A DNA stretch of 58,819 nucleotides, filler included, from Dirinaria sp. TL-2023a (Eukaryota), in the NCBI GenBank assembly GCA_051941275.1. It is 7 parts of 7 records of this genome, joined end to end, with 100 filler letters (N's around TTAATTAATTAA, not from the genome) between each part and the next. Parts side by side here need not be neighbours in the genome. Positions count along the whole stretch, not along the records: positions 1 to 8,334 come from JAVEBF010001199.1; 6 more parts are not named here. One strand, written 5' to 3'. Below the pieces are notes generated by a model that saw nothing but the letters and a program-made list of their open reading frames with translations, did no database searches and was not told the DNA's origin. Shown one piece after another: positions 1 through 33,616 of this stretch (positions are counted from its first letter, which is position 1; each line of letters starts with the position of its first letter). The position numbers were made by a program, and so were the translations under genes.

Positions 1-1
1 C

Positions 2-247
2 GTCTCTGTTTTTCTGGTTCAATTTTCCTAGCAAATTCAAGAGAACGTCCTGCGTGATCGGGGTTCTCTCTTGGGTACTGGCCTCACCATTCCGCCTTCG
101 AATGCCAGCAATCACACGCTTCAATCTAGGATGCGTGAACGTCTCCAAATCATCTCGAATGAAACCAAGGTCCACGTGGTGTGACCGGAGCCCTACGAGG
201 TACGAACTAATTGTCTTGGCCCTCACTTTTCTAACCCCTAATAATGT
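2..247 (-). mobile_element. Fragment of a DIRS/Ngaro-type tyrosine recombinase (N-terminal core-binding region), running off the contig end
   Basis: Manual translation of a minus frame absent from the ORF track (no start codon): LGVRKVRAKTISSYLVGLRSHHVDLGFIRDDLETFTHPRLKRVIAGIRRRNGEASTQERTPITQDVLLNLL. This matches the 'TI.SYL..LRS.H.DLG...F.HPRL.RV..GI.R...R.PIT..L' pattern of fungal YR-retroelement recombinases. In-frame TGA at 248-250. Confidence 0.75.
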
Positions 248-468
248 TCAAGCAGATGTGTTGCCCCATAGTGTTATACCTAGAGTGCTGCCTGGCACTA
301 GCGTGATTGCCTCGGTGAGTTCTACCTTATTAGAACTCACCCACATACATTTATAGACTTTAGACAATGCTATGCTTCATGTATGCCACCAAGTGCATTG
401 CTCAGTGCTCCAACATAGCAACCCATCAGATCTGAAGCAAGCAATGCAGAGTTCAAAAGCGTACTGAT

Positions 469-1681
469 CTTTTTCGCCAAAGACGTTCTTCGTGACTTCG
501 CTCCGACGTAGATATTCAAGAGCAGGGGTCTCAATATATCCCACCATCTCAGCAACGTGGTGTGTTGCTGATACTTCTTGAGCTTGATCCAGAGCATGAA
601 ACAGATGTTGATCCTCAAATAGATCCCATATCTGGAAGGGATGAGTTAGTAGAAGGTAGTTTAAGTTCAGCGAAGACTACCGGGATAGGTAAACTTACCA
701 GAGCAGCGACATTCCAGATGTCTACACTACAGTCCCATTTCATGTTGAATAAAACTTTCGGGGCACGATAGAGTTCAGGCTGAATCAGGCCCTTGTGAGC
801 TTGACCAATCCGCGCCTCTCCAAAGTCACACAAGACGGGCTGGCCCCAAAGCGAGTTCTTCGAAAGACCAAATTTCCGAGAATCATAGATCGTGCGAGTT
901 TCATCGATGATTTTCGTCGGCGATGGTTTCTCTACTTTCGCTTGTTCAAATTCCGAAAGGAGAGACTCATCGTCAATGCTTAGCATGATGTTCGAGGGAT
1001 TGATATCTGTTTTGAACTAGTGAACTCAATGCTCAAGGTATGAATTAATTGCGAACGCACCGGTATGTATCACTTTTGCCTCATCATGAAGGAAAGAGAG
1101 CGCGCTAAGCAGATTGAAAAGAGTTCAGTTTAAGATTTGCTTGTTAAGACGTTTCGACGAATTCTGGCACTGAAGCTCTCGAATGGTCATATGCATTGAA
1201 GGCTGAACAAGACACAGATGCTTCCCAGTTGAACTGTTGATTTCGAATGTCTCTAAGAGACCGCGAATATATGTCTGACCATTATGTTGTGAGTTGAGTG
1301 AAGTGACATGCTCGTAAAATTTCAACTCTCGGTCATTTCGTAGAGATCCCATTCTATCCCGAGTACAGATTTTGACGGCTACAAAGCCAGAACCTCTGCT
1401 GCATCAAAAATGGTCCTAGGTGGATTTATTGACTTCAAATCTCGGCAGAGCCAAACCGTAGAGTAGACACCGTATCCAAGCTTTCCCACAACTTTGTACT
1501 TAGAGATGAATATATCTCCTAGATGTACGGGATAAAACTGATCCGCGCGATACCAGAGGAGTCGCTCCTCCTCAAAGGACTGTGAGTGGTTCATCCTGAT
1601 TGCTTGAATGCTTCTGGAATGCGGTTTTGAGAAAGATGACGTTTTGAGAAATTGACGAATCCAGCTCTTGGTTCCGATCAT
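469..1681 (-). pseudogene. SRPK-like (CMGC) protein kinase pseudogene, intron-containing, 3'-truncated
   Basis: Motifs KLGYGVYSTVWLCRD, FVAVKICT, HT/DINPSNIML, CDFGEAR, YRAPKV, SVDIWN, IWDLFE. Premature TGA at 1125-1127, APE>APK, last donor reads AT instead of GT (468), and no terminal kinase exon is recognisable. Confidence 0.85.
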
Positions 1682-2183
1682 CACACATAATTATTCGAAT
1701 GAATGATGAGACCGAAAACGTGTATCTCTGTCGCATGAGACTTTGAAACGAACGCGTAAGATTATGTGTTGATGGCTGAATACGAAACACCAACCACTGA
1801 GATGGGATGAATTGCTTTCCATTACGTAATGAGGTCAGCTGTGCCAAGAAGGTCTAACTCGGAATGGTTACAACAATCGGCTTTTCAAACTTCAAAAGTT
1901 CCCGCAAAATTTTTTATTGGACCCTGGTTGATCTTATCGCGGCGTTTACTTCTTTGTAACAGATAGGGAGACATGACTCTCGTCGCGATTTCTGAACAGA
2001 TCATAGAGTCTGTACTAGGCCTAAGAAGCTGCTACGCGTATCGGCTCTAAGACGAGGCCGGTGAGTATAAAATAGTAGCTTCGGTGCAGATAAAGCCTTC
2101 TTCAATAATATTACCTGCTTGCACCGTTCACAACCTCAAATCTCATCATAATCTCCACAATTTTGACATTCAAGTTTTCCATC

Positions 2184-2521
2184 ATGAACTCAAGCTCCAG
2201 GAGACTTATGCAATACGTTGGGTCAGTCAAGCTAGAAAGCTTCTCTAACGCGCAGCTCCGACAAACTGTTCAAGCATTTTGTGCGAAGCAAGAACAGGAG
2301 GCACGTGTGCTCAATTCTTATTATGCTCGGCATGACTAATACTGGACCAGAACTCAGAAGTGAAAAAGGCCGAAATAAAAGACACTCGTCTTCATCAGTC
2401 TCACGATGATCCGAGCGACAACAAGCCTGTCATTTCGGTGCGCTTCAAGGACGAAGAGGACAGATCACTTGGCACAGGTCATGTCCATGAGGATGGGACT
2501 GGATCTGTGAAGTGGAAGTAG
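2184..2521 (+). CDS. Small 95-aa hypothetical protein, two exons (2184-2300, 2351-2521), GC-AG intron
   Basis: TATAAAA at ~2066, ATC-ATG start, donor GAG|GCACGT, branch ACTAAT, acceptor CCAG. Spliced ORF: MNSSSRRLMQYVGSVKLESFSNAQLRQTVQAFCAKQEQE-NSEVKKAEIKDTRLHQSHDDPSDNKPVISVRFKDEEDRSLGTGHVHEDGTGSVKWK*. Not in the ORF track. Confidence 0.65.
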
Positions 2522-3522
2522 TATCTCACCAATACGACACGATCTTTGCCAAAGATCGAGCCACGTAGGTAACAGTGTGTAGCAGAAGCTTATCGTAGAA
2601 TCTGTAACGCCAGTCAAGTCTCACGCGCTGTAAGATATGAGCAAGTCTTCACCTACCAATCAATCTCGTTTTCTAACATTATCATAAAACTTTCGTGCAA
2701 GACCCGTTCATAGATATCTCATACATTAATTACCTAGCAAAGCTTCAGCCGATCGCTGAGCATCTTTGATGTCGTGTTCTACAGAGGTGATTCCTCTGCT
2801 TGTGTATTTCCAAGACTCAATGCTGCAATGGTATTGACATAGAGAGATGGAATTGCCTGAATATAACTCCGGTTCTAGCGAGTTACTGACACGGAGACTA
2901 GGATCGAAACCTCGAATTGATCGAAGTAAGATGACTTGAAAGTGAGACAATCATGGACTCGATGCTTGCTGCGAACTTTGTACCTGCGGCTCCGATAAGA
3001 AGCCTGCATATGAGAGTCAGTCAAAGACTTGCTAATCTCGTCAATTTAAACCCTGGTGTACAGAACGATGACATAGAAATTAAAAACGATGTAGGATGAA
3101 CAAATTGAAGCAAAATTCATAAATGAATGTTAAAACCTGTATGGTGAGGACTATAGAACTCGGTGTCCCAGGACCAGAGACATTGACTGGACCATGTGCT
3201 CATGCTTTTACCACTTGGTTTCAACAGCGTTTCGCAATGCAGATAGTCGGAATCCTTGTAACACATTGATTAAAATAGGGTTATCTGGTCAGGCGTGGAC
3301 AATTCGCTGACCTTGCTGCTTCTGGTAGCATCTAGCATGGGAAATGCCCCGAAGAAAGCAATTAAAGCTATTGAAGAGCTGGTAATCAAAGAAAGAGTTT
3401 TGACTGTCCAAGATGCAAACGCGGCCAGTACGACTGAATTAAAGGGTTAATAGTAAGCACGACTGCACCCGATTTTTGTGAAACAAATGATGCGATCCAT
3501 GAGTGCGAGACTGAGATTATCG

Positions 3523-3789
3523 TTAGTCGTCGACGCTTGCAGCACCTGCCAGCCCTTGATCAGGGTGAATGCGGTTATAGAAGTATAAGGCCAGCAAGAA
3601 CGCTGTAACGACGATCACGGGCATGCACGCTACGAAGGCATCGGAGAGAACATTCAGAACTGCCTCTTGAGTCGTCAATGCTTTCACTACCTGTGCATCG
3701 GAGGTCGTCTTTTCTGCTTCGGTAACCGTCACTTTTCCGGCCAATTATGCTTCAATAGAGGATGATAAGGTTGTATAAGATACCATCAT
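3523..3789 (-). pseudogene. Small single-TM protein gene with an in-frame stop
   Basis: ATG at 3789 gives MMVSYTTLSSSIEA*LAGKVTVT..., in frame with ORF 3523..3744, which has the hydrophobic stretch AFVACMPVIVVTAFLLALYFY. TAA at 3745-3747 is one transition from CAA. Confidence 0.45.
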
Positions 3790-4289
3790 GGTACGCAGAC
3801 ATGCACCTCTGAAAATATAGATAAACTAATGTTTTGAAACTCAGCTGGAACTGCAAGAAAATTAATATACTTTAGCAGAGGAGACGCGAGATATGAGGTT
3901 CACGCCAGATTGCATGATTAGGGCCCACAAGCTGAACAATCCAGATATGATCGCTTGGGTTTTGCCATGCGTTTGCAATTTTTCAGGCTATATGTGTCGT
4001 GTTTAGGCTATATGAGTGCCATGTTTGATGTTGCTGCTTCTAGCGTCGACGATCGCTCAAATCAACTAATTATATAGATTTCGTGTTGCGGTGCAGCATC
4101 GAAAGCGCTTGCTAAGAGCGATCATTAGCAACGTGAGTATTCTGAGTTCATGCCAGTAGCGTCGGACGATTCGAGCAAAGTATTGAGATATTGTCGATCA
4201 AGTCAAGATCCCTTAGGCGGAAGGATTCGAAGGCCAAATTGGAAACTTGTACTCGACTGACTGCGCAGTAGAAAGCATAAATCCACCCT

Positions 4290-5480
4290 ATGTTTGTCAG
4301 AGAGCACCGCGATAGTCTGTGCGGTAGTATCTGAAAGATTTTGAAAAAGCGATCGCAAGAAGACTGGTCTTATGAATTATAAGAGAGATCAGCTTCGAAG
4401 AGGCTGAGAGACGAGGACCACCATCATCATTATCTGCCGAATTTTGTTCGAGTACGTACGGCGAAGCCGATCATCAGCAGGTGATCTGCTGTCGCTGATG
4501 AGCTTCTTCGACTGACAAGAGATCTCTGAGTTCATGATCCGCCATCGAGCGCAGATCGAAGATGAAAGTCGAAGCAAAAATCAAGGTCAAGCGAATCTAC
4601 CGCAGGAAGAAAAGAGCATTAGGCAACGTGATCATGCCAATGCTATGTGACAGCAGAATGACCAGACCAATGGACGTATGGGTAATAATAATTGAGACCG
4701 CGGAGGCCGAGATGAAGCAAGACGAGCTGGCTAACAAGGTCGGAATTGGGATAGCTAGACAGGCATTGATGATGCTAGTTCTGGACGGGGAGATTATCCA
4801 GGCCGTGAAGATCGCGGCGGACGAGGCAATACACGGGGTGACAAAAGCAATCACACTGATGCCGGTCCATCTCAAAATTTTACTGAAGGATTTTGCGACA
4901 ATTGCAGATGTCATCATGACAATATCAAATGCATCAATTGCAATGAATTTGGGCATGGATGGAGATGCTGCTCCAAGAGAGGCCAGCAACAGAATTCGCA
5001 GCAAAATCGAGGGAATAACAACAACACCACAGGCAGCACTCAGACGTCATCTACATTCATAAGTATGCTCCGAGTATCAGTTTATGTTGAGAAGATTGTT
5101 ATTGGAAGCCAATCGGAATCCATTAGAAACGGTATTAATAGAAGATTCTGAAAACAATCGTGCATATATCAGATGATCGAAGTTTATTCAACAATCTCCG
5201 GCCTGCACATTCCATAAAGAAAGTAGCAGATGGCAGTACACTGAAAATCAGGCAAATGGGCGATGTGCCTATACGTCTGCCAAGGGAAAGCACACTGACA
5301 TTCACTAATGTGCTCTTTGTACCTGGTATCAAAGTGAATCTAATTAGCACGGTAACTATGCGAGAAAAGGGGATAGAATTTCAAGATTCGGCCGATGCAA
5401 CACCCCATCTTGACTATAAGAGCCAGCATGTGACTTATGTAGAAGTTGTTCAAAAGCAATTTCTATTGCGGACGAAATAA
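4290..5480 (+). mobile_element. Degenerate Ty1/Copia retrotransposon gag-protease remnant
   Basis: CX2CX4HX4C zinc knuckle CINCNEFGHGWRCC at 4930-4971 after an R/G-rich stretch with several stops. Degenerate protease motif (DSE for DSG, ~5145) followed by HISDDRSLF...VADG...GDV...NVLFVPGIKVNLIS, typical of Copia Pol. No integrase or RT follows. 5' boundary approximate. Confidence 0.85.
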
Positions 5481-5551
5481 CAGAAGCCCAATTGCTCAAA
5501 TTGTTGGTGGTCACAGGATGACGCAGATCTGTGAAAAGGTATTAGCAATGC

Positions 5552-6612
5552 TCACAATACATTACATCCGAGACCGGTCGCTGTGACACCGCCGATGGTG
5601 GCTATAGCTCTCAGCCAATTGGGAACCGTTTCCGATAGCATGACCTTCATTAACAATGAACACAATATCTGACACCAAAAGGAGCTTTGAGATGAGAAAC
5701 TGACCCTTTTAGATTTCAGGGTTTCTTGCTGCAGCACTTTCATTTCAAGTTCATCCTTAAGTTGCTCGACTTCCTCCATCAATGCTTGTTTGTCGGCACT
5801 TGCCTCGCTTAATTCTCGTTCCGCTGTCTTCAATTGTCTCTCGAATCTTTCGATGTCTTCCCTCTTGTCTTCGAATAGCTGCTTCCCTGCTGAAGTTTGC
5901 AAAAGTACACCGTGGGCTTCCTCCAATTCTTTCTGCATCTGCAATGCAATTACTTCTTTGTCGATTAGCATCCGTATTATTTCGATTGCCGTCGTCCCGC
6001 TATTGTCGTGCTCAACGACAGAAGCTCCGCCCTTAATCAAGTCATCCCAGTACTTATCCTTTCGCTGATCAACCTGTTTGACGCCAGCTTCGCGATCATT
6101 CAGACCGCTCCACATGGTGGTGGCAATTATAACGTGCGAATAAGCCTCCTCTCCGAGGATTTTCTTGAACAGACGCAATCGTCGGGTTTCGTTGCCTTGT
6201 ATTTTGTTGCCAGTAACAGGTTGTAGGAGAATCACTCCTGTAAGAAGCTTTTTATGGTTGTATGTTTGCTGTAAAAAGTCGCCAATGCTGTTAAGCACCT
6301 CCACGTCAGAGACGTCCGTGTCATCGAAACCCGGGGTGTCAAGTAACACTATGTCTGTGTTGGAGATCTTGAAGTTGATCGCGGAAATTTCTTTAGTGCC
6401 TGTACCGCAAAATAAGAGCGTCAGTGGAAATATCGAGTAGTAGTAGAATTCGTACATGATTCAATATCATGACCAATTTTGAGATCTGTTCGTCCGGTGG
6501 CTTTTGAGATGAAAGTCGTCTTTCCAGCACCTGTCACGCCCAGCAACGCAATGATAAGTGAATCTTTTTGCACATCGAATCGTGGGTCACCGGAAGTGAC
6601 TAGCTTCACCAT
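5552..6612 (-). CDS. P-loop GTPase of AIG1/MMR_HSR1 type with C-terminal coiled coil and CaaX box (CNVL)
   Basis: G1 GVTGAGKT, G2 SCT (formed across intron 6400-6455), G3 DTPG, G4-like TTMW, an E/K/Q-rich coiled coil, and a GLGCNVL* end. Possible second in-frame intron at ~5633-5704. Confidence 0.85.
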
Positions 6613-6791
6613 CTTATGGGTGTATGAATTGGCACTTCCTGGAAAGTCGAGATCACTTGATCAGACTGACAATTTGCATAGCGAGGAGACAATAGAAGCT
6701 GCGCTCCAAAGATACGATATTCATATACGATTGTGCCATGACCCACCCTCTCGAAGAGAGGTGACAGTTTTGCCGAAGTCGTTCTCCGATC

Positions 6792-6921
6792 CATTGATCT
6801 TGTGTCGCACAAGAGTGGGGTCTGATAAGCAAATAGCCACTCAGTGTCTTCGGAAGCATTGATCTTATGTCGCAAAAGACAAGGGTCTGATAAGCAAATA
6901 GTCACTCAATGTCTTCAAGAA
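6792..6921. repeat. 65-bp imperfect tandem duplication
   Basis: CATTGATCTT(G/A)TGTCGCA...GGGTCTGATAAGCAAATAG(C/T)CACTCA(G/A)TGTCTTC starts at 6792 and again at 6857. Confidence 0.9.
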
Positions 6922-7264
6922 CCACACATGCATACGAGTTGATGTCATGGACGAAGAAGCTAGATATCAGTAATGTTAGGCTACCAGTAAGCGCACCCCC
7001 AGTTTCAGTCAACACCACAAAAATGGTTGAGTACCAAGGTGCACGTTCTTATGGGTAGAAGCAGGATGCCTTGTTTTTGGAGCAGAAGCTCCAGCTAAAA
7101 TACTAACTATCGATGATGACTAATTAAATGACGACACGGGGGTCGCACCCCGCTCCTTCCACTTCCTCAACCACCCCCAGTTTCGGTAAATGCACGCCCA
7201 CCTCTAGGGCTAGCATATAACCCTAGGGGTACATGTTATTTTTCCTAACACCAGCATTTTCACA

Positions 7265-7306
7265 CCACCTTCCACCTTCCACCTTCCACCTTCCACCCTC
7301 ACCTTC
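7265..7306. repeat. (CCACCTT)n heptamer microsatellite
   Basis: Four perfect copies plus degenerate copies of CCACCTT. Confidence 0.85.
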
Positions 7307-8113
7307 TACTGCATTCTAACATCACTGCAATCATCACCATCATCTTGTCACGATTTCACATTAGCTACCCGGGTCAAGTGTTTACACTATGAATGTTGTT
7401 CACCTCGCTACCCGGCATATGGTAGGGGTGCTGATTATGGATGGTAAAAGGGTTGATGGTTCTAGCTACTGGATGGTGATCTAATATACATGCGGTTGCC
7501 ACGGTGACAAATAAGCCACCGTCCATGGTGGTACTTTGGCAAGTACCACAATCAATGGTCCTAACAACCGGGTCATAGCAACCGTAACATGTTTGCGTTC
7601 CTACTATCAAATCAAGCAAGGAATAGTAAGCTCCCAGGAACTGCTTGAATTTGGGGTGATACCTAAACGGTTTCTAGAAGGAATCCTTGGAGAGGACTCT
7701 GCAATGCCAAGAAATGTTAACGCTAATAGCTTGACATTGTATCCTTAGATTGACCAGATAAGAATACTACTACGTAATTACCTACAGTGTTATGCTACGC
7801 TTCTTATTAAACCAACTGTCTTATAAACTACCTTAATGACTTACTCAAGCCTATCGCCACTCTGAACTACATGATATTATACTTTCACAAAGCTCAAAAA
7901 GATAAACTTTATTAACCCTAAATGAACCCTATAAAGCGTGCATAGGGGGGTGAATCTGAGTAACGGCGGGGTCGAGATGAGCGCTAATCGTCATGCATCT
8001 TGTCAACACTCTCGCGCTCTTTAACTATATTATCTCCCTTTCATTCCTCTCACACCACTGTTCCAAGCTAGTGGCTATATGAACACATTTTCTATTCTTT
8101 TATTTCAGTCGAC

Positions 8114-8334
8114 ATGGCTCGCGATCAAGCAAAACCAAATATTAAGAATAATCGACGCTAATCTTTAATATTAAAGAATTAAGATGAAATATTCGAAATT
8201 CGTATTTTTAGTATCTGAGCTGATCAACTATAGAGAGACGATTTCAGAGTATCAAAAAACAGCAAACTCTTTGTAAAAACTCACATCTGCAAGCAGTAGA
8301 AAATCTTCGCAAGCAATTTACATCTAAAAATAAT
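8114..8334 (+). pseudogene. Heavily mutated AT-rich ORF start, probably a transposon relic
   Basis: ATGGCTCGC... reads MARDQAKPNIKNNRR*SLILKN*... with several stops one transition from CAA/CAG/CGA; AT-rich; at the contig end. Confidence 0.35.
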
Positions 8335-8434
8335 NNNNNNNNNNNNNNNNNNNNNNNNNNNNNNNNNNNNNNNNNNNNTTAATTAATTAANNNNNNNNNN
8401 NNNNNNNNNNNNNNNNNNNNNNNNNNNNNNNNNN
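8335..8434. other. Artificial contig spacer
   Basis: N44-TTAATTAATTAA-N44 (stops in all six frames). Confidence 0.99.
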
Positions 8435-9024
8435 GGTCAATGGCGAGGAGGGAGGGGGGAAGAAGAAAAAGCAGAAGTTGAAGGTACTTGGATGAAAGCT
8501 GGCCAATGAACTTGCGCTGTCGAAGGCTGGTCGAAGCGAGGCGTTTCAGATAGTCGGGCGTTGCTGTAGAACTTCGAATGGCGTGAAAAGGTTTACGAAA
8601 TGCAATGTGACCATAAGTGCATGTCCATGCAGGGAAGTGTTCCTAATGTTACATTCTATATAAAATTCTATTATTACAGCTTGATATAGCGATGTTGGGT
8701 ATTCTGTAGTAGTTGTGTTTGCAATATATAACTGCCGCTGTTGGGGGACTCTGACTATCACACCACAAAGCTAAGCAACCAACGCCAGGCCTCCAACCTA
8801 GTCGCCCTTTCTGAACTTCGACCATCATGGATAGAAGTTGACGACTGTCATATCTGACGGATTTTCCAGCTTCGAAGCGACGGTCAGATATACGGTCAAA
8901 GTGCTGCAGATGATGCGTTTTGGTTCTGATCTGATGGGAGTTGGCTAGATCCTGGTGAGGTAGACTCAATCAACATGCAGGAAAGTCTAACGCTAACGAC
9001 TTTTGACCGGTTTCGAGGGCTGTA

Positions 9025-10896
9025 TCAACGAAGCATCTCGTCAATGTCAACCCTCCTCCTCTTCTTCTTACGCCCGCTCTGTGGACTGCCTTTCACTGGG
9101 CTTGCCTTGCTGGAAGATCGTCCGTTCCTGTGGTCTTCCTTCTTGCTGTCGTGCATTCCTGAGCCCGAAGTGCGTATTGGTGGCAATTGCAGATGTGCTG
9201 GAATACTGGTGGCTTCGTCATTGCGCCCTCTTTCGCTTCGCAGATGCTCAGGGCTCGTAGAGAGCCGATTCACGATGTACGGCATTGCAGCGTCTTTTGG
9301 GGGCGAGCGTTGGCTGTATTGTCCGACACTTAGACTATGTGATGGTTGCAGCTCCAATGATTGACCATGAGAAAATGTGGGTGACATTAATGGCAGGTGC
9401 TCGTTATACGAGTACGAGCGGACATGAGTTCCATTCGGCTGCACGGTTTTTGGGGGTTGGCGATCCAGAAGAGGAGCCCGCGTGGCCTGGGTTGGGGGGG
9501 AAGACAGTTGTTGATTACGCAGTCCCTCGGTTAGGCTGGGCGAAAGGACTCCCCTAGAGGTGTCTGGCCCCTGGATTAAGGTGAGAACAATGAAATGAAC
9601 GCCTGCCTCCGCCAGGGAGATTGAAATAGGGAATCCTCGGGACTGGTCCTTAGGGAGCCGGAAAGTCAAATATTCAGACCTCGTATGAAAACCAGCCGTA
9701 GCACGCCCTACATCGAGATTCTCAATCGCGGGCATGGATGCCCAAGAATCATACCTTCCATGAATGGGAGGGAGACGTGCTGCGTCAAGCAGCTCGGCTC
9801 GCAGCATGTTTTGCAGCCGATAGATTTTCTCTCTCTCAGAGGGAACAACGAGATCCACAAGATTCTGAGTCCTTGCATTGAAAGTCAAAGCCAAGGCTTG
9901 AGCAAAAGCAGAATTATGCTGGGCGACAACAAGGTCTGGTGTCAACAAAACAGTGGGAACAGAGTCCGAAAGGTAGAGCGGTGCACGAGAAGCTTGATGA
10001 CCTTGAACGTATTGCGCGTGGCCGTAGCCAGGGCCGGAAGTCTTTGGCCGCTGATCATGATTGCTGGCAAGGCCTGGTTGAGAGCGCAATTCCCGATAGG
10101 ATTTCGATCGAGGGCGCCCCGGTTGGGGAACAGTGATGATACCGCCTCGATTACTGAAATCCTCAACCTGCGTATAGCCTGTGCCAAAGGCTGCTTCTGG
10201 AAGGTTGTCTTCCTCTCGCAGTCGTGGTCTGCCACGCTTTTTGTGCTGGACATCAACACAGCTTGACTACGCAGGATCAGCTTTCTCGCTCACCCAGGGG
10301 AGTATTGCAAAATAGAGCGTACCTGTTTCCCCGTTTGAATGCAGCGGTTACAAGGACGTTTCGTCTCGCACGCCAAGTGCTTTCGCTTACAGTTGACGCA
10401 TGCAGAAGGTACATGCGCTTTGGCCCTTCTCGCGACACCGGGTGCCCCCGACGTCAAGTGCTGACTTTCAGGAGAATTCGTGGCATTCGAGGATAGCTCG
10501 TGGTGGGCTTCTTCGCGCAGTGCTGGAACACCAGAGCCGGACTGCACGGAGACTCTGGATGTCCTCGAGGCACCAATGCCAGAGCTGCTCGGTGGTGTGC
10601 TTAGGCCCAAAGGCTGGTCATTATACCTTACCTTGGGATTTGGGCGTAACTGGGAGCTGGCAGGACTATGCTTGCCCGACTCTGACCTGCCGGACTTGGA
10701 GGAATCTGAGTGCTTCCGATGATAACTGAAATGATGCTGAGGTGCGTTCGCAAACCTAGATTGAATAGGCGATGCTGACATAGGCGGAGACAAGTAGTAC
10801 CCTGATGACGGCAGATCTCGAGGTTCCGAGATCGGCGGTAGATGAATCTTCAGCTGTTGACAGTTGAGAGCGCACCGTGGAGAAGATACCAGCATT
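9025..10896 (-). CDS. Zn(II)2Cys6 transcription factor with a PAS-like central region
   Basis: ACVNCKRKHLACETKRPCNRCIQTGKQ / intron 10267-10322 / SSCVDVQHKKRGRPR completes the six-Cys cluster; long exon 2 to stop at 9025. Start uncertain (10896 or 10934). Confidence 0.85.
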
Positions 10897-13662
10897 GGAT
10901 GATTACGGTGGTTCGGCTCGTTCAGTGATTGCATTTGGCTGAGTTCAAGGCTCGGATGGTGCCCAAGTAAAGCCTCAGGATCCAAGACCAGCAGCAACAA
11001 AGGTGAAGGTGTTCCTTGCTTGAGTGCTTCTTCCCCTGAATCTCCCGCTGAATGTGCTCTCGGAGCGAGTCGCGAGAAGCTCGGCAAGGTCGTTTAAATT
11101 CCTTGTAGAGGCAACCTGACGGCGAACAAAATCAAAACTGAACCATATGACAACCAATAATTGAAGCTCCGAGGAACGGTTCCGGAGTAAGAGCAAGTGT
11201 TCGCGCTACGAGGACTTTTATATACTTTTTTGCGCTTTCCCCGAGTACTTATCATCGGGTTATTGCAAAGTTGAGACGACTCCACAAAACGTCCAAGCAC
11301 CAACACATTAGACTCGGAGAGCCATTATTGCTATTACTTGAGGAAATTTGGGCGATACTGTGTCGGCGGATGACAGATTGGCGCCATAATTTGAGGACGA
11401 ATAGATTGAGGAACAGAACTCAGAACCTGACCCAGGACTGGCGCAGCAATCGCAAGGTCTTCGCGTGCTAAGACGGACGCAAATTTCTATCTGTGCAATG
11501 GGTATTTCTGGTCCATCGGGGCCCCGAGGTAGCAGAGCCGCTGCCAATCATCGAAACATAGGGCTGGCATGAGGGTTTCATCGAGATGCGAATGATCCGA
11601 CACAACACAATCTTTCGGAGATTTACTACAGCTGTTGCCGCAAAAGCACCTCGTGGCAAGGCTATCAAAATTTGATCACTGCTAGAGCCTTAGGGCGCTA
11701 TGGCTGGCGTGACTATCATTTGAATTTCTTCGAAGGACTCCGTGCACCCGGCTAAAGCAGGATTATTGAGGCCCGTGCAAGCTCGAAAGAACTCATGGTT
11801 TATGTATGATAAGGTCAATTTTTTGGAACTGATTAAACCCCAATCCAACCACGGTCCAATCATCTTTTTCGCGGTGGAGGCGATCACTCCGCGCTCACCG
11901 TCTCACCACATCAAGAACAGTCCGAGTAAGAAGGCAAAGCTTGGGATCAATACACCCATTGGCCACAGGGAGTGGCTGGTGATGCCTTCTGGGATCGGAA
12001 CAATGGAAGCGCCCGACTATCCGCTCAACAGCCGAGATCACCGATTTGGCCTCCACGTATCGGAAGCTCCTTGCTCTGGGTTGGCAGGGGACGTTCCGTC
12101 CTTGAAGTAGTAGCGCAGCGCTGCTTCAGCAGATTACTCGTGACTTTTTGGGGGAGAAACGTGACGAAACGTGACGTGCTATGGCTGTGCGCTGTCAAGT
12201 AGCCAGGAGCAAGATTGACTTTTCCAATCGGATAGAGGATGGCAAGCTCCGTAAAATGATACTGCAAGTTGCTCATTCATCGCGAGGCTAATGACAGGGG
12301 AGAGGATCGTACATCAGGCCCTGGGTAGGATCAACAGAGTTCACCTCGTACATTGAACACGCCGACTACTGCTGCAGTGGGTTGGGCCCTGCAGTGGGGA
12401 GTGTCTGTGTTGTTTCTTGGATTGACAGTGGGTTTTTCTTTTTTTTTCTCTCCTTCGTATATGGAGTTATTTAGTAGGACCGAATATGCTGAAACGAGGC
12501 GCGTGAGATTATGTGGTGCGCTTATCGGAATGTCGGATCGACACATGTCGCTTTTCTAAAAGGGGACGCCGATCATCTGAAACTGCCCCAACCTGGTTAC
12601 GGTCTACCTCAAGGTAGCCTTGACATAAAGGTATTATTATTATTACGGTAGGGTGTAGGTACCTAGTTCATCTCGTTGGAGAGCAAACAGCCTCGAGGAG
12701 TCGAGGCCGAGAGATGGATCCTTGGCAATCTTTGCTAGTGATTTGCTAGCCAGTCATCTATGCCGATTTTGGACTTGACGTGATTTTGGTCGTTATTTTG
12801 GTTTTCATGTCGGTTCAAGATTCAAGACAGCCAATTAACCGGGTTATAGGTACATAGTCTAATGTGTAACTGGTGTGAGAGAGTGCAGCGATGCAGCAAG
12901 GCACCCTGCGATATGTGGGCCAGTGGAGCTTTTTGCGCACTAGGCCTAAGCTTGTCTGATTGTTTTCCCATGGCCCTCATCCTACCTTAGGTACCTTAGT
13001 CCTAGCACAAGACTGGCGTGTCTGGGGGGGGCAAGCATCATTTTTCATTCAAATGCGGGACCGGCTTCGAATCCGGGAATTGTTTCGAGATTGGAAGATT
13101 GCAGGGATGTGTCGGAGAATTTTGCACCTCATATAGAGCAAGAGATCGATCAGCGCTTGAAAGCATGTTGCTAGGAAATGCATACACGGTCCAGCAGGAG
13201 GTCATATCTCGTCGTCGCCATTGTTTCATGAAATGCAGGCCATTGGTCACGTTGGCATGCTTCCGTCGGAAATACTGGCAAAATTGCTTCCCATTTTGGG
13301 ATCGGTCGCGAATCGAATTATTTCTCGCTGCATCATCCAAGAAGCCTGTCGGATCAATCGTACAGAAACCGTTTTATGTGCATTTGCTTTGGTCTGTTGT
13401 CTCACAGGGAACAGGTCGTTTGCCGACATAGCATACGGTACGTCGTCCGAAGAGAACGCGACAGCTATCCTGGCTGTTGTGTGAATGATCATTGTCGATG
13501 CTGTCTCATATGAGTCGTAAATCTGGGGCAGGCCGGACACGTGTATGCAGAGAAGGAAACTCTATGCTTAAGCTCGGGCGCTGAGAGGATTCTGGATTGT
13601 TCCTTCGCTGTACCTAACGTTTTGCCAAGCGCGCGCCTTATTGGCCGCTACATGAGATTTGA

Positions 13663-15244
13663 TCAGAATCTCCGGAATCTCCAATTTTGAGTGTTTCCTA
13701 CTTCGTCCAGGATAACTTCCTGTACCTTTTCCCTTACCCCACTTACTTTGCCAGCAACTCCACTGATCCCGGATTCCATCTCTCGCAACACGGCGGCCAA
13801 TTCCTTCACTTGGTCCTCAACGCTTTTCGAGCCACCTTCTTCTCCGTGAGCGAATATCAATTGTTGCATCCTGTTTACCATGCTGACTTCAAGGCCGTCC
13901 AGATAAGCCTGAACCTCACTCATGCGGCCTTTATGACTGTTTAATGTTTTGGTTAATTCATCCGCCTGGTTTGAGAAGTAAGATAGGAGACTGGTGGGTG
14001 CTCCTTCCACGTCGTCATCAATCAATGAAGGAGCAGTCAAGTGAGACGTGCCGGGAGCGTACCAGGCAGTAGAACGCTGAAACTGCTGTGGCAGTCTCAA
14101 TGTTGCAACGGCGTTGAAGCTTAATTTGGCATTCGAAGCATCTGCATTGCTCAGCTTCTTGACTTCGTCTATAGCCTGTGCATCATTTTCAAGCGCTTGC
14201 TGTACAGCATCGAGTGCCGTCTGGCAATTTTCTACTTCATTTGGGACAGGCCTCGAAGCATCTTCAACATCCTTAATTGCTGTTTCGCATTCGCTTTGAA
14301 ACCTCATCTGGTCAAGGACAAAATTATCAATGTTTTCAATGATCTTCTGGAGCTCTTCGTGCAGATCATTGAAGCGGGTCGTCGGTCTTAGTTCGTTGAC
14401 ACTGACCCGTACGCCAGGTACTGTCTGCTGCTGCTGGCTTAGTTGTCCAATGCTGCTGGTAAAAATAGAAGGTGCCGATGGAGCTTGAGGCTGTGTTTGG
14501 GTTTGTGCTTGAGGTTGGGTTATAGTTGATCCACTGCTACCGTAAGCTTTGACCTAATGTACATACGTAACAGCTAGAATGGGATCAGTAGACCTACAAT
14601 AGTGGGGTTGGCTTCTGTTGAGAACTTGGGTTGCCAAAGATGCCGCTACTGCGAGCTTGTGAAGCTTGGTTTTGCATCTGACCAAGGGAACCAAAGAGTC
14701 CCCCACTCTGGTTTTGTGTATTCCCAATAACACTATTACTTTGTGCCGAGAGGCTCCCAGAAAGTCCTGTGCCTTGGTTTTGCTGGTTGCTCGACCCCTG
14801 AGCGCCGGAAAGGCCTGCGCCAAATATATTGTTACTTTGCTGAGGTTGGGCTGCTGTTGACGGCGTACCGAGCAAGCCCCCGCCTTGCGTCGTGCCTGCT
14901 GTGCCGAAAAGACCGCTGCCCTGCGATTGAGATGTGGTTGTGGTTGGACCAAACAAACCTCCACCGGAATTAGTGTTTGCCGTGCCAAAAAGGGTATTCC
15001 CAGTCGATTGAACCGCTGGATTAGACGAGCCAAAGCCCGTCGACTTCGGTTGTTGCTGTTGCTGTAAGGAGCCGAAGAGCCCTCCAGACTTTGGTGGCTG
15101 ACTAGAGCTATTGGCACCTCTGTTTAAAGGGAGTTAGCAGTCGCGAAGGGCATTAATATACGGAGTAGGCGCTCACAACGCATTCGCTGAGCTGGTGTTT
15201 ATGCTCAGGCCCCCAGGCCCTGACTGAGTACGGGAACCGAACAT
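13663..15244 (-). CDS. NUP49: GLFG nucleoporin Nup49/Nup58-like
   Basis: GGLFG/NIFG repeats, then ELRPTTRFNDLHEELQKII and a coiled-coil C-terminus; two introns; ATG at 15244 (MFGSRTQSG). Confidence 0.85.
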
Positions 15245-15439
15245 TCTCGCTTTTCTGCGATTGTTCGGTAAGGACTGTGTGGAGTGCGGTACATAAATAA
15301 TAATGTACAGAGAACGCGGTCGAGTGTACCCAATGAAGCCGAGGCAATGCTCTAACCGAAGGAGGAAGCTTAAGCGAGAAAGCAACTACGCGTCACGCAA
15401 GACTCAAATATATACTCTCAACAAGCTTGTGCTGCAAGT

Positions 15440-16585
15440 ATGGAAGAAGAGGAAGACGAGGACATCTACGCGCCTACAGACATTGACAATGGGTCAAGTG
15501 CCAGGATGGATGGAGTGGACACTTCAGCTGTCGCCCACACAGCCGGCGCAGACCTAGAAGAAGGCGAGGAGGAGGGTGAGGAAGTGGAGGAGGATGACAC
15601 TGACTCGGTATCGCTTAGCAAACTACGCTCTTCGCAATTTTTCAAAGTTTGCTGACAGTTGATAGGATATCGATATAATTACAGAGCGAAAAGATGTGCC
15701 CAAGCCTGAACCGGGGTATAAATGCGCCCATGCTTTCGATCGAACACGCATTGACTGAAGCGCTAGTCAGACTCAGCGGTCAAACACAGTAAAGCCGTCC
15801 GCTGTGAAAGGAGTAGCCAGCGAGCATGCTCGACCGTCGCCATCTCCAACAATCAAGATCGAAGCGCAAAGTAGACCGACAGCAACACCACCACGTTCAG
15901 GCGCTTCATATCCAGCTGTTAGGACTTCGAAGATAGATGTGGATGTAAAACCTGTGTACGAGGCTAATGGCAAGCCTATCACACAGATTGACATGGATGC
16001 GGGTATTTCCTATCTCAATGCATCGTCCGACTCGTTCGAAGCTCACCGACGTGCCTGTTAGACTTTCCGGAAGATGATAAACCGTGGCGACGGCCTGGCA
16101 CCGATATGACCGATTATTTCAATTATGGCTTTGACGAATTTACATGGGCTAGCTACTGCCTGAAGCAAGAGTCGGTTCGCAAGGAGGTCGCCGACTCCAA
16201 AAAGCAAATGGATGACATGCAAAGCTTCCTAGCAATGCCCGGAGGGATGGCTGGAATGCCAGGAGCCGCCTCGGGAGCCATGCCAAATATCGGCGCGCCA
16301 GCGGACATGCCGCCAGAAATGGCACAGATGATGCAACAGATGATGGCAACAGGCATGGATCCCTCACAGATGAGTCCGGAAATGTTCATGCAGTATATGA
16401 TGCAAGGCGGTCAAAATGCTGGTGGGCAAGGTGGCATGGGAGGAGCGCAAGGCTACGGACAACAAGGGCAGGGCCACCAGCAAAATTATGGATATGGTGG
16501 TGGTGGGAGTGGTGGCGGCGGGACAGGATGGCTCCTTCAAGGGCGGCAGTTCACGTCCGCGATGATCCTCTGGGCGCTGCAGTGA
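15440..16585 (+). CDS. FIP1: Pre-mRNA polyadenylation factor Fip1; 3' end replaced by foreign sequence after ~16522
   Basis: Acidic N-terminus, Fip1 motif [31 protein letters not shown]-rich tail; three introns. Confidence 0.92.
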
Positions 16586-16765
16586 TATCTGGCTTTTTCG
16601 ATCAGCTGCCGCCACCTCGCTTCGATGCTGTCCGATCTTGGTATCATCATCGATCACACTCCCCTGTTCCGTTGGGCGCAGGCCCATGCCGCCAGGCTGG
16701 AACAACGGGTCCGGCGTCATCTGCGCCTGTGCATCGGATCCTGTCGGGTGGATGCGACCTACATC
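16536..16765 (+). mobile_element. Degenerate bacterial IS6-family transposase N-terminal fragment
   Basis: FK(G)[73 protein letters not shown] parallels the IS6 pattern FKGRQF...ILWAVRWYL...SYRDL..ML..RG..VDHTT..RWVQ.YAP..EKR.R......SWRVDETYI. It has a frameshift and a stop, is GC-rich and intronless. Confidence 0.9.
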
Positions 16766-16865
16766 NNNNNNNNNNNNNNNNNNNNNNNNNNNNNNNNNNN
16801 NNNNNNNNNTTAATTAATTAANNNNNNNNNNNNNNNNNNNNNNNNNNNNNNNNNNNNNNNNNNNN
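16766..16865. other. Artificial contig spacer
   Basis: N44-TTAATTAATTAA-N44. Confidence 0.99.
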
Positions 16866-17308
16866 ATTTTATAGATATGGTTCTCGTCACATCAAGCATG
16901 TTGCATCGCGTTTCGAGTCATGGTTTTAGCTGTTGCGCCCGAATATAATTGGGTTTTCTATGTCATGCCCAAGAAGGAGGCCTGTTTACCGAGCGAGCCA
17001 AGAATAAATAGCTCCTTTTTTTTTAAAAAAAAAAAGAAAAAATTTGACAAAACAAAAACAAGCCAGACATATCATGCAAGCTACTTAGAGCTCCAGAAAA
17101 ACGCTCAGGACTATGCATTGGAAAGAGGCAGGGCAGTGTAGAGCCCACACCGCCTGAAGCCAAATTGGTTATCTGAGGAGAGAAGAAAGAACTACCTTTA
17201 CGGCAAAATGCCAATTTCGTTTTTTTTTTTCTCGGCCAAGATGGGTAGGAGGTGGTGGGTTAGCAGCGATCGGAAGTCACTCAATCAAGCAAAAAATGGG
17301 TTCTGACT

Positions 17309-19741
17309 TTATACGACCTTCAGCCTGGAAGGATTCGAACTGTTGTCATCGGCGGTGCCCTACAAAACAGAAGCTTTGTGGTCAGGAACATTGTACCGGT
17401 CAATCTGATGAAAATGCATGGGGTGATACTTACACCTCCTCCCTTTCGTTTTCCCAGCACCGAGTCGGGCGTCGATGTCCGCATTGGTGTATTCCCGCCC
17501 TCACTCTTCAATTCTACATACTCGGAAGCGTGGTAGACCCGGGTCCCAACTTTGACTGCGTCTTTCCAGACCCAGTCGCTAATGCTGTCATCATACGATT
17601 TTTGGAAATGCTCTTGGCATATGGGGCATGGAGCGTTAGCCAGGGCATGATCATCAGGCACGAGGATATATTGATTCTTGGGGTCCTTTTGAGCTGCCTC
17701 GGCTGCTGCGGCAGCTTGTGCCTGAGAGCCTTTTGCTCCGCCAGGCATCACATCTTCGCCTTCCTCAGTCGTCTCTTGCCATCTAATCCACTCCTAAGAG
17801 CCACATTAGTACCACAAAACCTGGTCTCAAACGCGACTAGATCAAAATAACGTACCAGTTCCGACACATACCAACTCCGACTCTGGCCTCGTTTGGCGGC
17901 GTCTTCTCGCTTGATGCGTATTCGAAAATGCCAGTCAAGATGCCGCTCCTTCTTTTTCTTTCCTTCAGGCGTAGACAGGAACCGCTTTCCACAGGTGGAA
18001 CACTGGTTTGGGAATGCTTGGTATAATGATGCGATCAGATGCGGTTGGGGTCTGGCGTCTGTTAGTAACGTTTATATCGGTGGCGAACGAAAGGATGTAC
18101 ATCTTCAATGACGCTGATGTTAGCTCTACGTCGTTCTTCGGTGCAGCTGTGGCCGGCTGTTCTGTAGTCGGAACGGCGTTGTTCGCATTTGTTTTCAGGC
18201 CTTGCGGATTGGGGTATTGGTTTGGTGGCGACTGGTTCACAGCGCTATTGACGGGAATACTCCCTTCGGGCGGTAGTACGCCGGCAGCCCGTAATGATGC
18301 AATGAGTGAGGAAGGTTGCGCAGGTGCTACAGGTGCCGGCTCTGAAGCAACAGGAGGGGGGCTATATTCAGGTGAAGGTGGAGGTATAGGAGGCTGCACG
18401 ATCCCTTGTGGAGGCGCTGACTGCTGTGCTGTGACAGAAGCCAAAAGGTCAGCCAAAGCATTCGATCCCAGAAGGCTGGAAATATCCGGCTGTGGCGGAC
18501 TTATTGGCGGAGGAAGACCGGACGTTGCCGGAGGAGGGCTATAATGTGATGACGTTGGGGTGGAAACATATGTAGAGGGGCTCATTGGAGGGACATAGGG
18601 CGCCGGAGCCGGTGGAGGAGTAGCTGTATAGTGACCTTGAACAGGTGTCGATGGGGGTATGACTGCGATCTGTGCAAGTTGAGCTCGGATCCCCTCAATG
18701 TTCGGAACGTCTTGGGTCCGCAATATTGTCTGAAGTTGCAGCAGAGCTTGCAACTTCGTCCTCGTATCCGAATCACCAACGTTAGTCGCAAACGAGTTCT
18801 TATAGTAATCGATGAGGTTGTTGATATCCCTGAAGAGTGCTTCTAGGGCCGGTGAATTTTGTGCGGGTGGCTGGTAGGCCGGCTGGCCCGGATACTGTGC
18901 TTGCGACGGGGGAGGATAATGTTGCTGAATTGTTGCCGGTCCGCCGGGTGGTGGAGAATGCTGTGGGTGGCCCTGATATAAATTTAAAGACTAATATGAG
19001 TGAGCAATGAGCATTCGAACATGTCGGACTACGTATGGCTTACTTGGGCATGGCCATTCATCACTGGCTGTGGGGGATAATTGTGCATAGGAGGCTGTTG
19101 ATAGCGATTGTAATTTTGCGGAGGGGTTGGAGTATTGCGCAAAGGCGCCCCCATAGGGCGCCCAGCTCTGAATAGATCTTGCTGGTTCTTCTGTTGCATC
19201 TGAACGTGCATCGTCCGCCATTTAATCAAGGCATTCTCGATGGGCCGTATTATTTCAGGAGCAAACACAGGCCTCGAGTCTAATGATCCAGGCACTGGCT
19301 GTTTCCACGTAACAAGCATCTCATCAAGCTTCTTGCGGACGCCAGCATGCACTAGACTGTACGCACCCATAAAAGTCTTGAACAGATCTCTGCCCAGAAA
19401 GATGGTGTATGGTGTACCAACATTCTTCACTATCGAATCGAGGACGTAGAGAGCGGGGAGCTTGCGTTCCGAAGTCGTCTGAGACTCTATTAGCTTGGTT
19501 CTCCCGGAATAGATGAATCGATCGCGGTGCAATGCTTGACGGGGTCTGCAAGTCCTCGCCTGCTCAGACTTACTGTACGGATGTGGTTTTCTAAGACTTT
19601 GGAGATTGCCATGGCATGCTCAGTGTTCTCGCGCGCGATAACAGTAAGGTTGTTAATCTCCCACCTAGTATTGGTCACGAGGTCTTCCAGAGAGCTTTTA
19701 TAGTCTTCAGCTACCTCGTCAGATGCCGGAGCGACAGACAT
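17309..19741 (-). CDS. PCF11: mRNA cleavage factor Pcf11
   Basis: CID domain (DYKSSLEDL, KLPALYVLDSIVKNVGTPY), Pro-rich middle, and zinc-finger parts (QCSTCGKRF...HLDWHF; CPICQEHF...WVWKDAV...YHAS); multiple introns. Confidence 0.92.
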
Positions 19742-20432
19742 GACGGAAAGTGCAGGGCCCGGTGTAAAGGGGACCACGGGTTTGGACTTCGAAGAAAAGA
19801 AATTGCAGAGATGTCAGGATCAGAAGCACAAAGCCACAGCGCAAACGCCAGAGAAGAGAGCTTTGTTTCAGTAGGACGTGAAACGAATCTGTTCAATAGT
19901 TTGGCACGTCCCCACAATGGGTATTACCACTATTGTTTGAGTGGCGGCTATCTAACCCTCCGCAGTGAAGCCTGTTTATGCCATCGCTAATTAGACATCC
20001 CCACCTTCACCAGCAGCCGATCCATTACCACCACGAGACAGAGTGTTGTTGCGAACTGTAGCCCAATGCTACCATGGACGGGATTATGGAGACGTTGTTC
20101 AGCCCAAGCTTGATGGCAGGAAGACAAACGAGCTAGGTTTTAAAGAATGGAGAAGGGCAGGTATGATCTAGGTAGTCCTCAACCTGTCTCGAAAGGGTTC
20201 ACTGAATATGTGAAGGTGAAGTAGGTAGAGAAGCCGCTCTATTTAATGTCCAAGGTAAGGTAATGTACCTTACTGCTTTTGTGCTAGTTCAGCCGAGTCC
20301 GGTTAGCGAGACTGTTCCCTCGAGCCGCTTAGTCACCATCCTGGCATGAAACGAAACGTCAAGGTCAAGCGGCTTTGTTCACTGTCTTGTCCATCATCAG
20401 CTCCAATAGCTCATCCATCCACCGCCCGCATC

Positions 20433-20889
20433 ATGAAGTTAAGCAATCTCTACGCAATCTCCGCAGGGCTAGCTTTAGGCGTCACAGCGGCCTCACCGCA
20501 GAAGCAAGTCCTAATCACCTATCCGACTGATACACCTGAATCGGCACTCATCCAAGCAAAGAACTCTATAGAGAGCGGCGTAAGCATGGCGGACCCAGCT
20601 ATACGGCTGTTGCTAACGCAATCACATTCAGGGTGGGCAGATACTACATGAATTTGGTGGGTTTTCTGGTTCAAAGCTTCGTTAAGCAAAGCAGCTGACG
20701 GGTCTGGAATAATGTAGAACTTCTGAAGTAAGCTCTCGTTAGGCCTCGAAAACCCTCTGGGCATGCTTCTAACCGCTCGTTAGGGGTTTCATAGTCAAGG
20801 CTTCCGAACACGCAATCGAATCTATCCATGCGCTTTCCGAAGAATACAAACCTTTGATCGAGGAAGACCAGACTGTCACCACCCAATAA
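20433..20889 (+). CDS. Small secreted peptidase-inhibitor I9 (subtilisin-propeptide-like) protein
   Basis: Signal peptide MKLSNLYAISAGLALGVTAA. Spliced product ...KNSIESG/GGQILHEF/ELLK/GFIVKA...IEEDQTVTTQ* fits the I9 pattern; three introns including a 10-nt exon at 20718-20727. Confidence 0.8.
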
Positions 20890-24600: not shown

Positions 24601-24833
24601 CGCCTACTCACAGAAGATCTAACCACGCTGCGGTATGGTAGTTGAAATCTCAAGCGGAGTATATCGCCAACCTCGAGCGCGAAACCCGACTCATGGCATC
24701 GGCGTATCACACTCTGGCAGGGCGGCTGCAGATGACAAACGTGACGTTGCAGCGAAAGGTGGAAAACCCAAGTACGTGGCTCAACAGGCAGCGGAGACTG
24801 GTCGATCAGCAGGCTGCTGTGCCTGGCTTGTAA
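21669..24833 (+). CDS. hookA: Hook-family coiled-coil dynein/early-endosome adaptor (HookA/Hok1-like)
   Basis: N-terminal ALTEWV-NSFP Hook domain, long coiled coil, C-terminal LERETRLMASAY...RLQ...V.LQR...TWLNRQR; many introns including a GC-AG intron at 22164-22217. Confidence 0.8.
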
Positions 24834-33598: not shown

Positions 33599-33616
33599 GA
33601 GGGGTTTCTTTCCGAA

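Follow-up and report, generated by a model that had tools for sequence, protein, structure and literature searches.

CpC-biased G:C>A:T decay of an SRPK-like kinase pseudogene and its surroundings in the lichen fungus Dirinaria sp. TL-2023a

Which mutational process struck a protein kinase gene of the lichen fungus Dirinaria sp. TL-2023a, and was it confined to that locus? The gene lies on the first of the seven contigs, of about 8.3 kb each, that make up the window (the whole stretch of DNA analysed, 58,819 bases) of a metagenome-assembled genome (MAG); because the window consists of separate contigs glued together, genes on different contigs are unlinked and features cannot be read over the joins. 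tblastn confirmed the predicted minus-strand gene and its extent (465-1681), and domain homology places it in the SRPK-like (CMGC) family of fungal kinases. The original prediction held that this gene had decayed mostly through G:C>A:T transitions at CpC, by a mutator resembling repeat-induced point mutation (RIP). The observation of CpC-biased decay is confirmed and statistically strong, and the action of a C>T mutator with CpC specificity on the kinase locus is supported, while the targeting of repeats and a former multicopy state of the kinase, both part of the same prediction, are conjectural; specifically, the sequence context and the regional limit of the changes agree with that proposal, which had, however, overlooked O6-methylguanine as a rival explanation.

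The mutation spectrum was reconstructed codon by codon, taking as the ancestral residue the majority among 40 homologues at least 70% identical (70-86%), aligned to the conceptual translation of the pseudogene. Columns in which at least 3 close homologues align were assessed (n=334), and a codon counted as deviating when its residue disagreed with the one shared by at least 60% of them. Thirty-one codons deviate, all of them explicable by a single base change and none of the assessed columns requiring a tandem change; they comprise 21 G:C>A:T transitions, 3 A:T>G:C transitions and 7 transversions. Sorted by the 3' neighbour of the mutated cytosine, the 21 G:C>A:T events fall on CpC (17), CpT (3), CpG (1) and CpA (0), in a count that drops 3 ambiguous transversions and treats as a transition one Leu>Phe change that may be either a transition or a transversion. 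The null comprises all positions in these columns where a transition at G or C changes the residue, namely 89 CpA, 74 CpC, 58 CpG and 65 CpT sites (286 in total), and CpC thus contributes 26% of the opportunities (74/286) and 81% of the events (17/21; binomial P=2.0e-7; Fisher odds ratio (OR) 15.5, P=5.6e-8), with rates per opportunity of 0.23 for CpC, 0.00 for CpA, 0.02 for CpG and 0.05 for CpT. Four other sets of thresholds return CpC shares of 16/20, 11/14, 10/13 and 9/12 (P from 6e-7 to 8e-4). Both strands are mutated, with 9 C>T and 12 G>A changes on the coding strand. The base 5' of the mutated cytosine has little effect (A[C]C 4/17, C[C]C 2/19, G[C]C 3/15, T[C]C 8/23), and the events show no clear dependence on either the 5' or the +2 base. 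At the protein level, Pro>Ser outnumbers Pro>Leu (5 vs 1) and Gly>Asp or Gly>Glu outnumbers Gly>Ser (4 vs 1), the outcome of mutating the 5' C of CC; Pro>Ser together with Gly>Asp and Gly>Glu provides 8 of the 17 CpC events.

Nine of the ten individual lesions that the original prediction had listed were verified against homologues. They include the TGG>TGA change at 1125, where Trp is present in 19 of the 21 close homologues and in 76 of 89 of the wider set; the Glu>Lys changes in APE>APK at 758 (Glu in 27/30), MEW>MKW at 740 (18/30) and AE>AK at 938 (30/31); GCC>GTC at 1467 (Ala in 6/6); CCC>CTC at 1557 (Pro in 8/8); CCA>TCA at 1232 and 1199 (Pro in 16/16 and 17/17); and CCG>TCG at 1160 and 863 (Pro in 15/21 and 31/31). 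The remaining lesion, a donor site G|GT>G|AT proposed at 468, had to be reassigned: position 468 is no splice donor because homologue P0256, which reads through intron 4 (QCAFELYPVCL, aligned with QYAFELCIACF in the window), puts the donor at 464-463, where GT is intact. The change at 468 is instead a GGT>GAT missense (Gly>Asp) in GpG context, located in an unassessed column, and by eye it would be the eighteenth GpG event. A CpG lesion of the type D>N, also proposed, was matched by no lesion in the gene, and LPKNS is common to the closest lichen relatives.

As read from its sequence, the kinase gene is dead because a TGA stands at the conserved Trp, intron 1 is short, the last exon is missing and near-invariant residues are replaced. 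An intact reading frame and the conserved motifs of a functional SRPK-like member are both lacking: besides the TGA, APE has become APK, GAYS has become GVYS and PPMHM has become PSMHM, and the Pkinase profile (PF00069), carried by the homologues, several of the fuller ones being named SRPK or CMGC/SRPK by their sources, scores 29.5 bits on the broken translation, under its cut-off of 31.7 bits. Against the 51 nt of homologue P0224 (a single read-through translation), intron 1 falls short by 16 nt and is probably unspliceable at this length. The C-terminal exon of about 65 residues (WKGAGG...PWLEGAIP) was not found anywhere in the window by tblastn at E<=10.

Synonymous sites of the same gene show the same bias. 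Third positions were classed by the following base where they hold a pyrimidine and by the base before where they hold a purine. The controls were 16 long open reading frames (ORFs) with 6,834 codons in total, taken from the other six contigs, which served as background DNA and contain housekeeping genes (SF3b1, Rad10, Nup49, Fip1, MRS2). At CpC-type third positions, A or T occupies 57 of 75 kinase sites and 812 of 1,481 control sites (OR 2.6, P=3e-4), a fraction of 0.76 that exceeds every one of the 16 controls (0.24-0.67), while CpA-, CpG- and CpT-type positions are unchanged in the kinase (OR 1.19, 1.21 and 1.02, all non-significant). From this synonymous excess, roughly a quarter to a half of the CpC sites (23-47%) can be estimated to have been converted.

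The procedure itself is unbiased, because a CpC excess is absent both from the intact GTPase gene of contig 1 and from 40 metagenomic kinase loci. In the GTPase gene, compared with 44 homologues, the 9 G:C>A:T changes divide into 2 CpC, 3 CpG and 4 CpT, with 34 CpC sites among 125 opportunities (P=0.75). The kinase loci, drawn from JGI metagenomes and at best 75% identical at the protein level, were used to control the method and to examine synteny, not to infer ancestry at the DNA level; in strict columns, CpC accounts for 85 of their 300 G:C>A:T changes (0.28), equal to its share of opportunities (0.28), against 9 of 12 in the window, and G:C>A:T makes up 300 of their 913 changes against 12 of 15 in the window. 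What sets the window apart is therefore the context of the changes and the near absence of transversions.

The signature is local and not genome-wide. Dinucleotide counts delimit a block depleted in CpC/GpG and enriched in TpC/GpA, in which the GC-corrected dinucleotide odds ratios rho(CC)/rho(TC) are 0.81/1.41 for the kinase, 0.70/1.23 for 1682-4537 and 0.75/1.28 for 465-5000 as a whole, against 1.00/1.06 in 13.5 kb of non-ORF DNA and 0.91/1.14 in ORF DNA of the other six contigs. The TC:CC ratio of 465-5000 exceeds that of the other contigs with an OR of 1.78 (P 6.5e-18, approximate since dinucleotides overlap), compared with 1.08 for TA:CA, 1.20 for TT:CT and 1.20 for TG:CG; as a raw ratio, TC/CC partly reflects the lower GC of the block, for which the rho values correct, and it was reached by none of 429, 330 and 228 equal-length background windows for the kinase, 1682-4537 and the block, respectively. 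A 400-bp profile shows both strands affected along 400-5200, and the flanks 1-464 and 6800-8334 lie at or below background; windows around 3000-3600 are also at background, an argument against uniformity of the block. On the left, the edge of the block matches the position within intron 4 at which similarity to the kinase homologues is lost and an unrelated ORF (2..247) begins; on the right, the edge lies inside or close to a truncated Copia fragment. The segment, about 4.5 kb long, holds the first four kinase exons, a small neighbour gene, roughly 2 kb of DNA that received no assignment (2520-4537) and, perhaps, the beginning of the Copia element. Since the pattern is not genome-wide, a targeted process fits better than a general mutation spectrum.

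The explanation we favour, tentatively and with slightly less than even confidence, is a RIP-like, locus-targeted cytosine deamination with a non-canonical CpC specificity. Under this explanation, the segment would have undergone a locally confined burst of G:C>A:T changes in both strands, triggered by duplication or heterochromatin and striking almost solely cytosines followed by a 3' cytosine (the first C of 5'-CpC-3', equivalent to GpG>GpA); the agent would be a RID/DNMT-type or other deaminase preferring CpC over CpA, and the burst would have created the TGA at the conserved Trp together with radical Pro>Ser, Glu>Lys and Gly>Asp replacements at near-invariant residues. We infer here the enzymatic nature of the deamination, its dependence on repeats and its timing relative to the short intron and the lost last exon. 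No C5-methyltransferase was recognised among 52 ORFs of the window scanned with Pfam. That the lichen-forming lineage possesses a locus-targeted genome-defence mutator of 5'-CpC-3' specificity, with the first C as its target, is a broader proposition that we consider possible but on balance doubtful; candidates for it are a DNA deaminase, RID/DNMT-type or other, whose target-recognition domain has been re-tuned, and a hitherto unknown mutator directed at guanine.

Canonical RIP is a RID-/DIM-2-dependent process of N. crassa that is also reported in the lichen fungi Cladonia and Xanthoria. As in RIP, the changes are mostly G:C>A:T (21 of the 31 deviating codons), affect both strands and crowd into a dense, bounded segment of a few kb (~465-5000), in which a gene has been inactivated amid surroundings rich in transposable elements, in a fungus of the Pezizomycotina; moreover, RIP together with RID and DIM-2 homologues is described for lichen fungi in excerpts of recent reports (PMC12542154, 10.1101/2025.11.25.690456). 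The differences concern the context (CpC, with 0/89 at CpA), the lack of strong AT enrichment (GC 0.44) and the lack of a demonstrated duplicate partner. The contrast with the CpA preference of canonical RIP, already drawn in the original prediction, is borne out by the consulted part of PMC5496416, which ranks the contexts CpA>CpT>CpG>CpC in N. crassa and places CpC lowest in T. reesei too. Comparative work, as far as its excerpts go, recognises RIP signatures at CpA, CpT and CpG (PMC4352252, PMC2621366), and the same two sources offer a precedent for a lineage-specific dinucleotide preference of a C>T mutator. The non-canonical RIP-like signatures named in such excerpts (CpG and CpA in Aspergillus, TpCpG in Microbotryum, CpT in Magnaporthe and Botrytis, CpG in Tuber) differ from the present one in that none of them is CpC. 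A search of the full-text literature, which did not cover supplements with per-species dinucleotide tables, found no CpC-dominant RIP-like mutation.

A number of results weigh against the RIP-like explanation. By the classical thresholds for RIP (TpA/ApT >=0.89 and (CpA+TpG)/(ApC+GpT) <=1.03) the kinase is negative, with values of 0.57 and 1.31, and no 500-bp window inside 465-5000 passes both. tblastn found no second copy of the kinase in the 58.8-kb window, hence no repeat partner, and no protein of Dirinaria sp. TL-2023a other than P0228, a fragment of this very kinase, figures among the 24 and 120 homologues listed. Characterised RIP ranks CpC lowest in the part of PMC5496416 referred to above, and a kingdom-wide survey of 2025 (PMC12543289), again by its excerpts, describes RIP-like defences as sharing a CpA preference. 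The Copia ORFs in the block display no CpC-specific excess at third positions (OR 3.0 for CpG, 2.2 for CpT and 1.8 for CpC). Strand clustering of the events, which a processive enzyme should produce, is not significant in an opportunity-aware simulation, either for all 21 events (6 runs vs 9.95 expected, P=0.06) or for the 17 CpC events alone (P=0.26); strand-coordinated runs are accordingly not claimed, their label-shuffle P of 0.013 being lost once local opportunities are modelled. The 21:3 asymmetry between G:C>A:T and A:T>G:C is by itself undiagnostic, because the control loci are skewed in the same direction (300:105). Lastly, the ancestral codons derive from homologues 70-86% identical and not from a sister copy, and the sample is one locus on a single 8.3-kb contig of a fragmentary MAG.

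Among the competing explanations, the one that fares best, although we hold it to be unlikely, is alkylation of guanine at O6, in which guanine, preferentially where a 5' purine precedes it, is alkylated by a methylating agent or metabolite, pairs with T and yields GpG>GpA (and ApG>ApA) changes of the SBS11 type, recorded by the pseudogene since nothing there selects against the damage. COSMIC SBS11, attributed to SN1 alkylating agents, and in-vitro temozolomide/O6-methylguanine mutagenesis both produce C>T at NpCpC and NpCpT in the consulted part of PMC12556801, and 20 of the 21 events in the window indeed consist of a C followed by a pyrimidine (17 CpC, 3 CpT); the weak influence of the 5' and +2 bases and the non-significant strand runs are equally at home in this scheme. 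Alkylation, however, acts genome-wide and depends on exposure, yet rho(CC) is 1.00 in the non-ORF DNA of the other six contigs, neutral DNA there is unaffected, the flanks of the block on its own contig are at background and the GTPase gene 4 kb away is unbiased, and no mechanism is known that would confine such damage to a 4.5-kb block.

A rather improbable alternative is the slow decay of a silenced block, in which a CpC-favouring methylation, of the kind seen in methylation induced premeiotically (MIP) or in heterochromatin, would be followed by spontaneous deamination of 5-methylcytosine with no burst. It would likewise predict a regional limit and hits on both strands, and the surroundings rich in transposable elements (the Copia fragment and a recombinase-like ORF) and the small number of other substitutions (3 A:T>G:C, 7 transversions) are in line with it. 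Against it stands the very large rate ratio needed to convert 23-47% of CpC sites while barely changing other contexts and types; furthermore, we know of no eukaryotic methyltransferase with a CpC preference, which also counts against this route.

An artefact of consensus calling or of assembly, be it systematic miscalls where cytosines are modified or a MAG contig that is chimeric, appears very improbable. Contig 1 is short, belongs to a fragmentary MAG and has a GC of 0.44 vs 0.49-0.52 in the other six contigs, as such an artefact might have it; the changes are nonetheless context-specific, occur on both strands and keep to a single block that normal sequence of the same contig flanks on either side, they are accompanied by independent structural lesions (the intron shorter by 16 nt and the missing last exon), and the closest relatives of both genes of contig 1, the kinase and the GTPase, are lichen fungi.

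Ordinary pseudogene decay, with the CpC bias arising from chance, selective listing or the make-up of Pro (CCN) and Gly (GGN) codons, can be set aside as having hardly any chance of being correct, for although Pro>Ser and Gly>Asp/Glu form nearly half of the CpC events and the controls are also skewed towards G:C>A:T, the opportunity-corrected test already covers codon structure (P=2e-7), synonymous sites agree independently, and the 40 loci of the same family and the gene on the same contig lack the bias, with CpA at 0/89 and CpG at 1/58 in the kinase.

Two further processes with related targets do not fit. APOBEC3G, like the putative agent sought here, is a cytidine deaminase aimed at CC dinucleotides, and it mutates the 3' C of CC (GG>AG); in the kinase the 5' C is mutated, and a C is the 5' neighbour in 3 of the 21 events. 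Ultraviolet (UV) light, to which lichens are exposed in sunlight, also causes C>T at dipyrimidines, and its signature (SBS7) combines CC>TT tandems with C>T at cytosines in the 3' position of dipyrimidines, irrespective of the base that follows; the spectrum of the kinase is different (Y[C]R 1/88, Y[C]T 0/32, R[C]C 7/32, no tandem change) and regional.

If the RIP-like explanation is right, indices of RIP based on CpA (TpA/ApT and the composite index) would miss a CpC mutator, and no AT-rich isochores would be expected from its action. Because TGG>TGA is the only way in which CpC>TpC creates a stop codon, nonsense changes are rare, so that genes with many hits can retain long ORFs and pass for intact in annotation, and the recognition of pseudogenes and silenced genes in lichen genomes would change. 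Should the signature recur on repeats throughout this genome and those of its relatives, the specificity of fungal repeat defence would prove far more plastic than CpA, CpT and CpG, and a natural variant would be at hand for mapping which part of a RID-type (or other) enzyme sets the context. Alkylation-type damage, if that is what occurred instead, would point to an unusual local history of DNA damage in a lichen symbiont.

Table 1. Features of contig 1 and layout of the window, in positions of the whole window.
Feature	Position	Strand	Evidence or remark
SRPK-like protein kinase pseudogene	465..1681	minus	tblastn with 7 homologues; last exon (~65 aa) absent
Kinase exons	1681-1434, 1398-1061, 1006-699, 631-465	minus	
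Kinase start codon	1681-1679	minus	
Kinase intron 1	1399..1433	minus	35 nt, aa|gt...ag|c
Kinase intron 2	1007..1060	minus	54 nt, in frame, GT..AG; read through in Prodigal-type ORFs of homologues
Kinase intron 3	632..698	minus	67 nt, GTAAGT..CAG
Kinase intron 4 start	435..464	minus	intact GT donor at 464-463; family homology stops about here
In-frame TGA for conserved Trp	1125..1127	minus	TGG>TGA, G>A in GpG context
CpC/GpG-depleted, TpC/GpA-excess block	~465..5000 (approximate edges)	both	dinucleotide counts
Small two-exon gene, ~110 aa product	~2184-2312, 2348-2518	plus, divergent from kinase	tblastx
Ty1/Copia-type retrotransposon 5' fragment	4538..5480	plus	PF22936 Pol_BBD E 2.7e-14; gag-like ORF, CCHC-like motif by eye
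AIG1/G-domain GTPase gene, intact	5555..6612 (exons 6612-6456, 6399-5555)	minus	100% match to P0290; same-contig negative control
Open-ended ORF outside mutated block	2..247	minus	ESM Atlas feature matches 0.93-0.96; no Pfam match
Contigs in window	1-8334, 8435-16765, 16866-25194, 25295-33616, 33717-42020, 42121-50422, 50523-58819		
Spacers between contigs	8335-8434, 16766-16865, 25195-25294, 33617-33716, 42021-42120, 50423-50522		N-runs around TTAATTAATTAA

Two annotated proteins of the MAG match contig 1 exactly, namely P0228 (137 aa, the kinase fragment) and P0290 (334 aa, the GTPase), both labelled as hypothetical proteins. The closest relative of the kinase is P0178, from a MAG of Letrouitia subvulpina (83% amino acid identity), and the exon-sized ORFs P0194, P0196 and P0200 from lichen-type metagenomes are 80-86% identical to the kinase. 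Three candidate features of the gene were rejected: an apparent frameshift between exons 1 and 2, which, in comparison with P0004 and P0234, proves to be a phase-2 intron (aa|gt..ag|c); a match of 13 aa between the C-terminal part of P0004 and 2416-2454 (E 3.6), taken as chance; and the catalytic loop HTDINPSN, with Asn for the usual Lys, which is not a lesion and is native to this kinase subfamily. The loop HTD(I/V/L)N(P/A)SNIM (window 1004-978, minus strand) recurs, with few exceptions, in the 13 aligned homologues and, going by this motif, may mark a clade of atypical kinases or pseudokinases. The family is patchily distributed over lichen fungi, Chaetothyriales black yeasts, Hortaea werneckii (with many copies), Hypocreales and Pleosporales, a spread that recalls, by analogy, the Starships of lichens, for which the consulted part of 10.1101/2025.11.25.690456 describes horizontal transfer linking black yeasts with lichen fungi.

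Upstream of the kinase and divergent from it, the small two-exon gene encodes a protein with the motifs YVG.VK.E and VISVRF...GTGH.H.DGT, for which no Pfam family was found. Its homologues adjoin kinase homologues, within about 2 kb and in varying orientation, in 20 of 80 metagenome loci (including L008, L020, L021, L027, L028, L031, L036, L040 and L046), and from this co-occurrence the two look like a conserved gene pair of unknown function. The small gene offers only 24 conserved columns, with 2 G:C>A:T events (1 CpC, 1 CpT), and no significant context excess at its third positions. The truncated Copia element abuts the 3' end of the GTPase gene. A Pfam scan of 37 ORFs of at least 45 aa in 1-470 and 1690-5150 gave no convincing E-value.

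On the other side of the kinase, the dinucleotides of ORF 2..247 are at background. Some of its ESM Atlas matches are named 'Phage integrase N-terminal SAM-like', and as a lead only, drawn from these model features, the ORF may represent the N-terminal SAM-like domain of a mobile-element tyrosine recombinase; its weak similarity to the kinase (E 0.028) was taken as chance. A mobile element may have replaced the last exon of the kinase, and its repeat is perhaps why the assembly breaks at the start of the contig.

The GTPase has a coiled-coil tail and relatives at most 55% identical, mostly from lichen-type metagenomes; the family is thus fast-evolving. Its third positions carry an A/T excess at CpT-type sites (OR 1.6, P=0.03). 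Upstream of the GTPase gene, a 65-bp unit is tandemly duplicated at 6785-6914 (the copies being 85% identical), a (CCACCTT)x6 microsatellite occupies 7265-7306, and CpC/GpG is overrepresented across 6800-8000 (rho as high as 1.3), contrary to its depletion in the mutated block.

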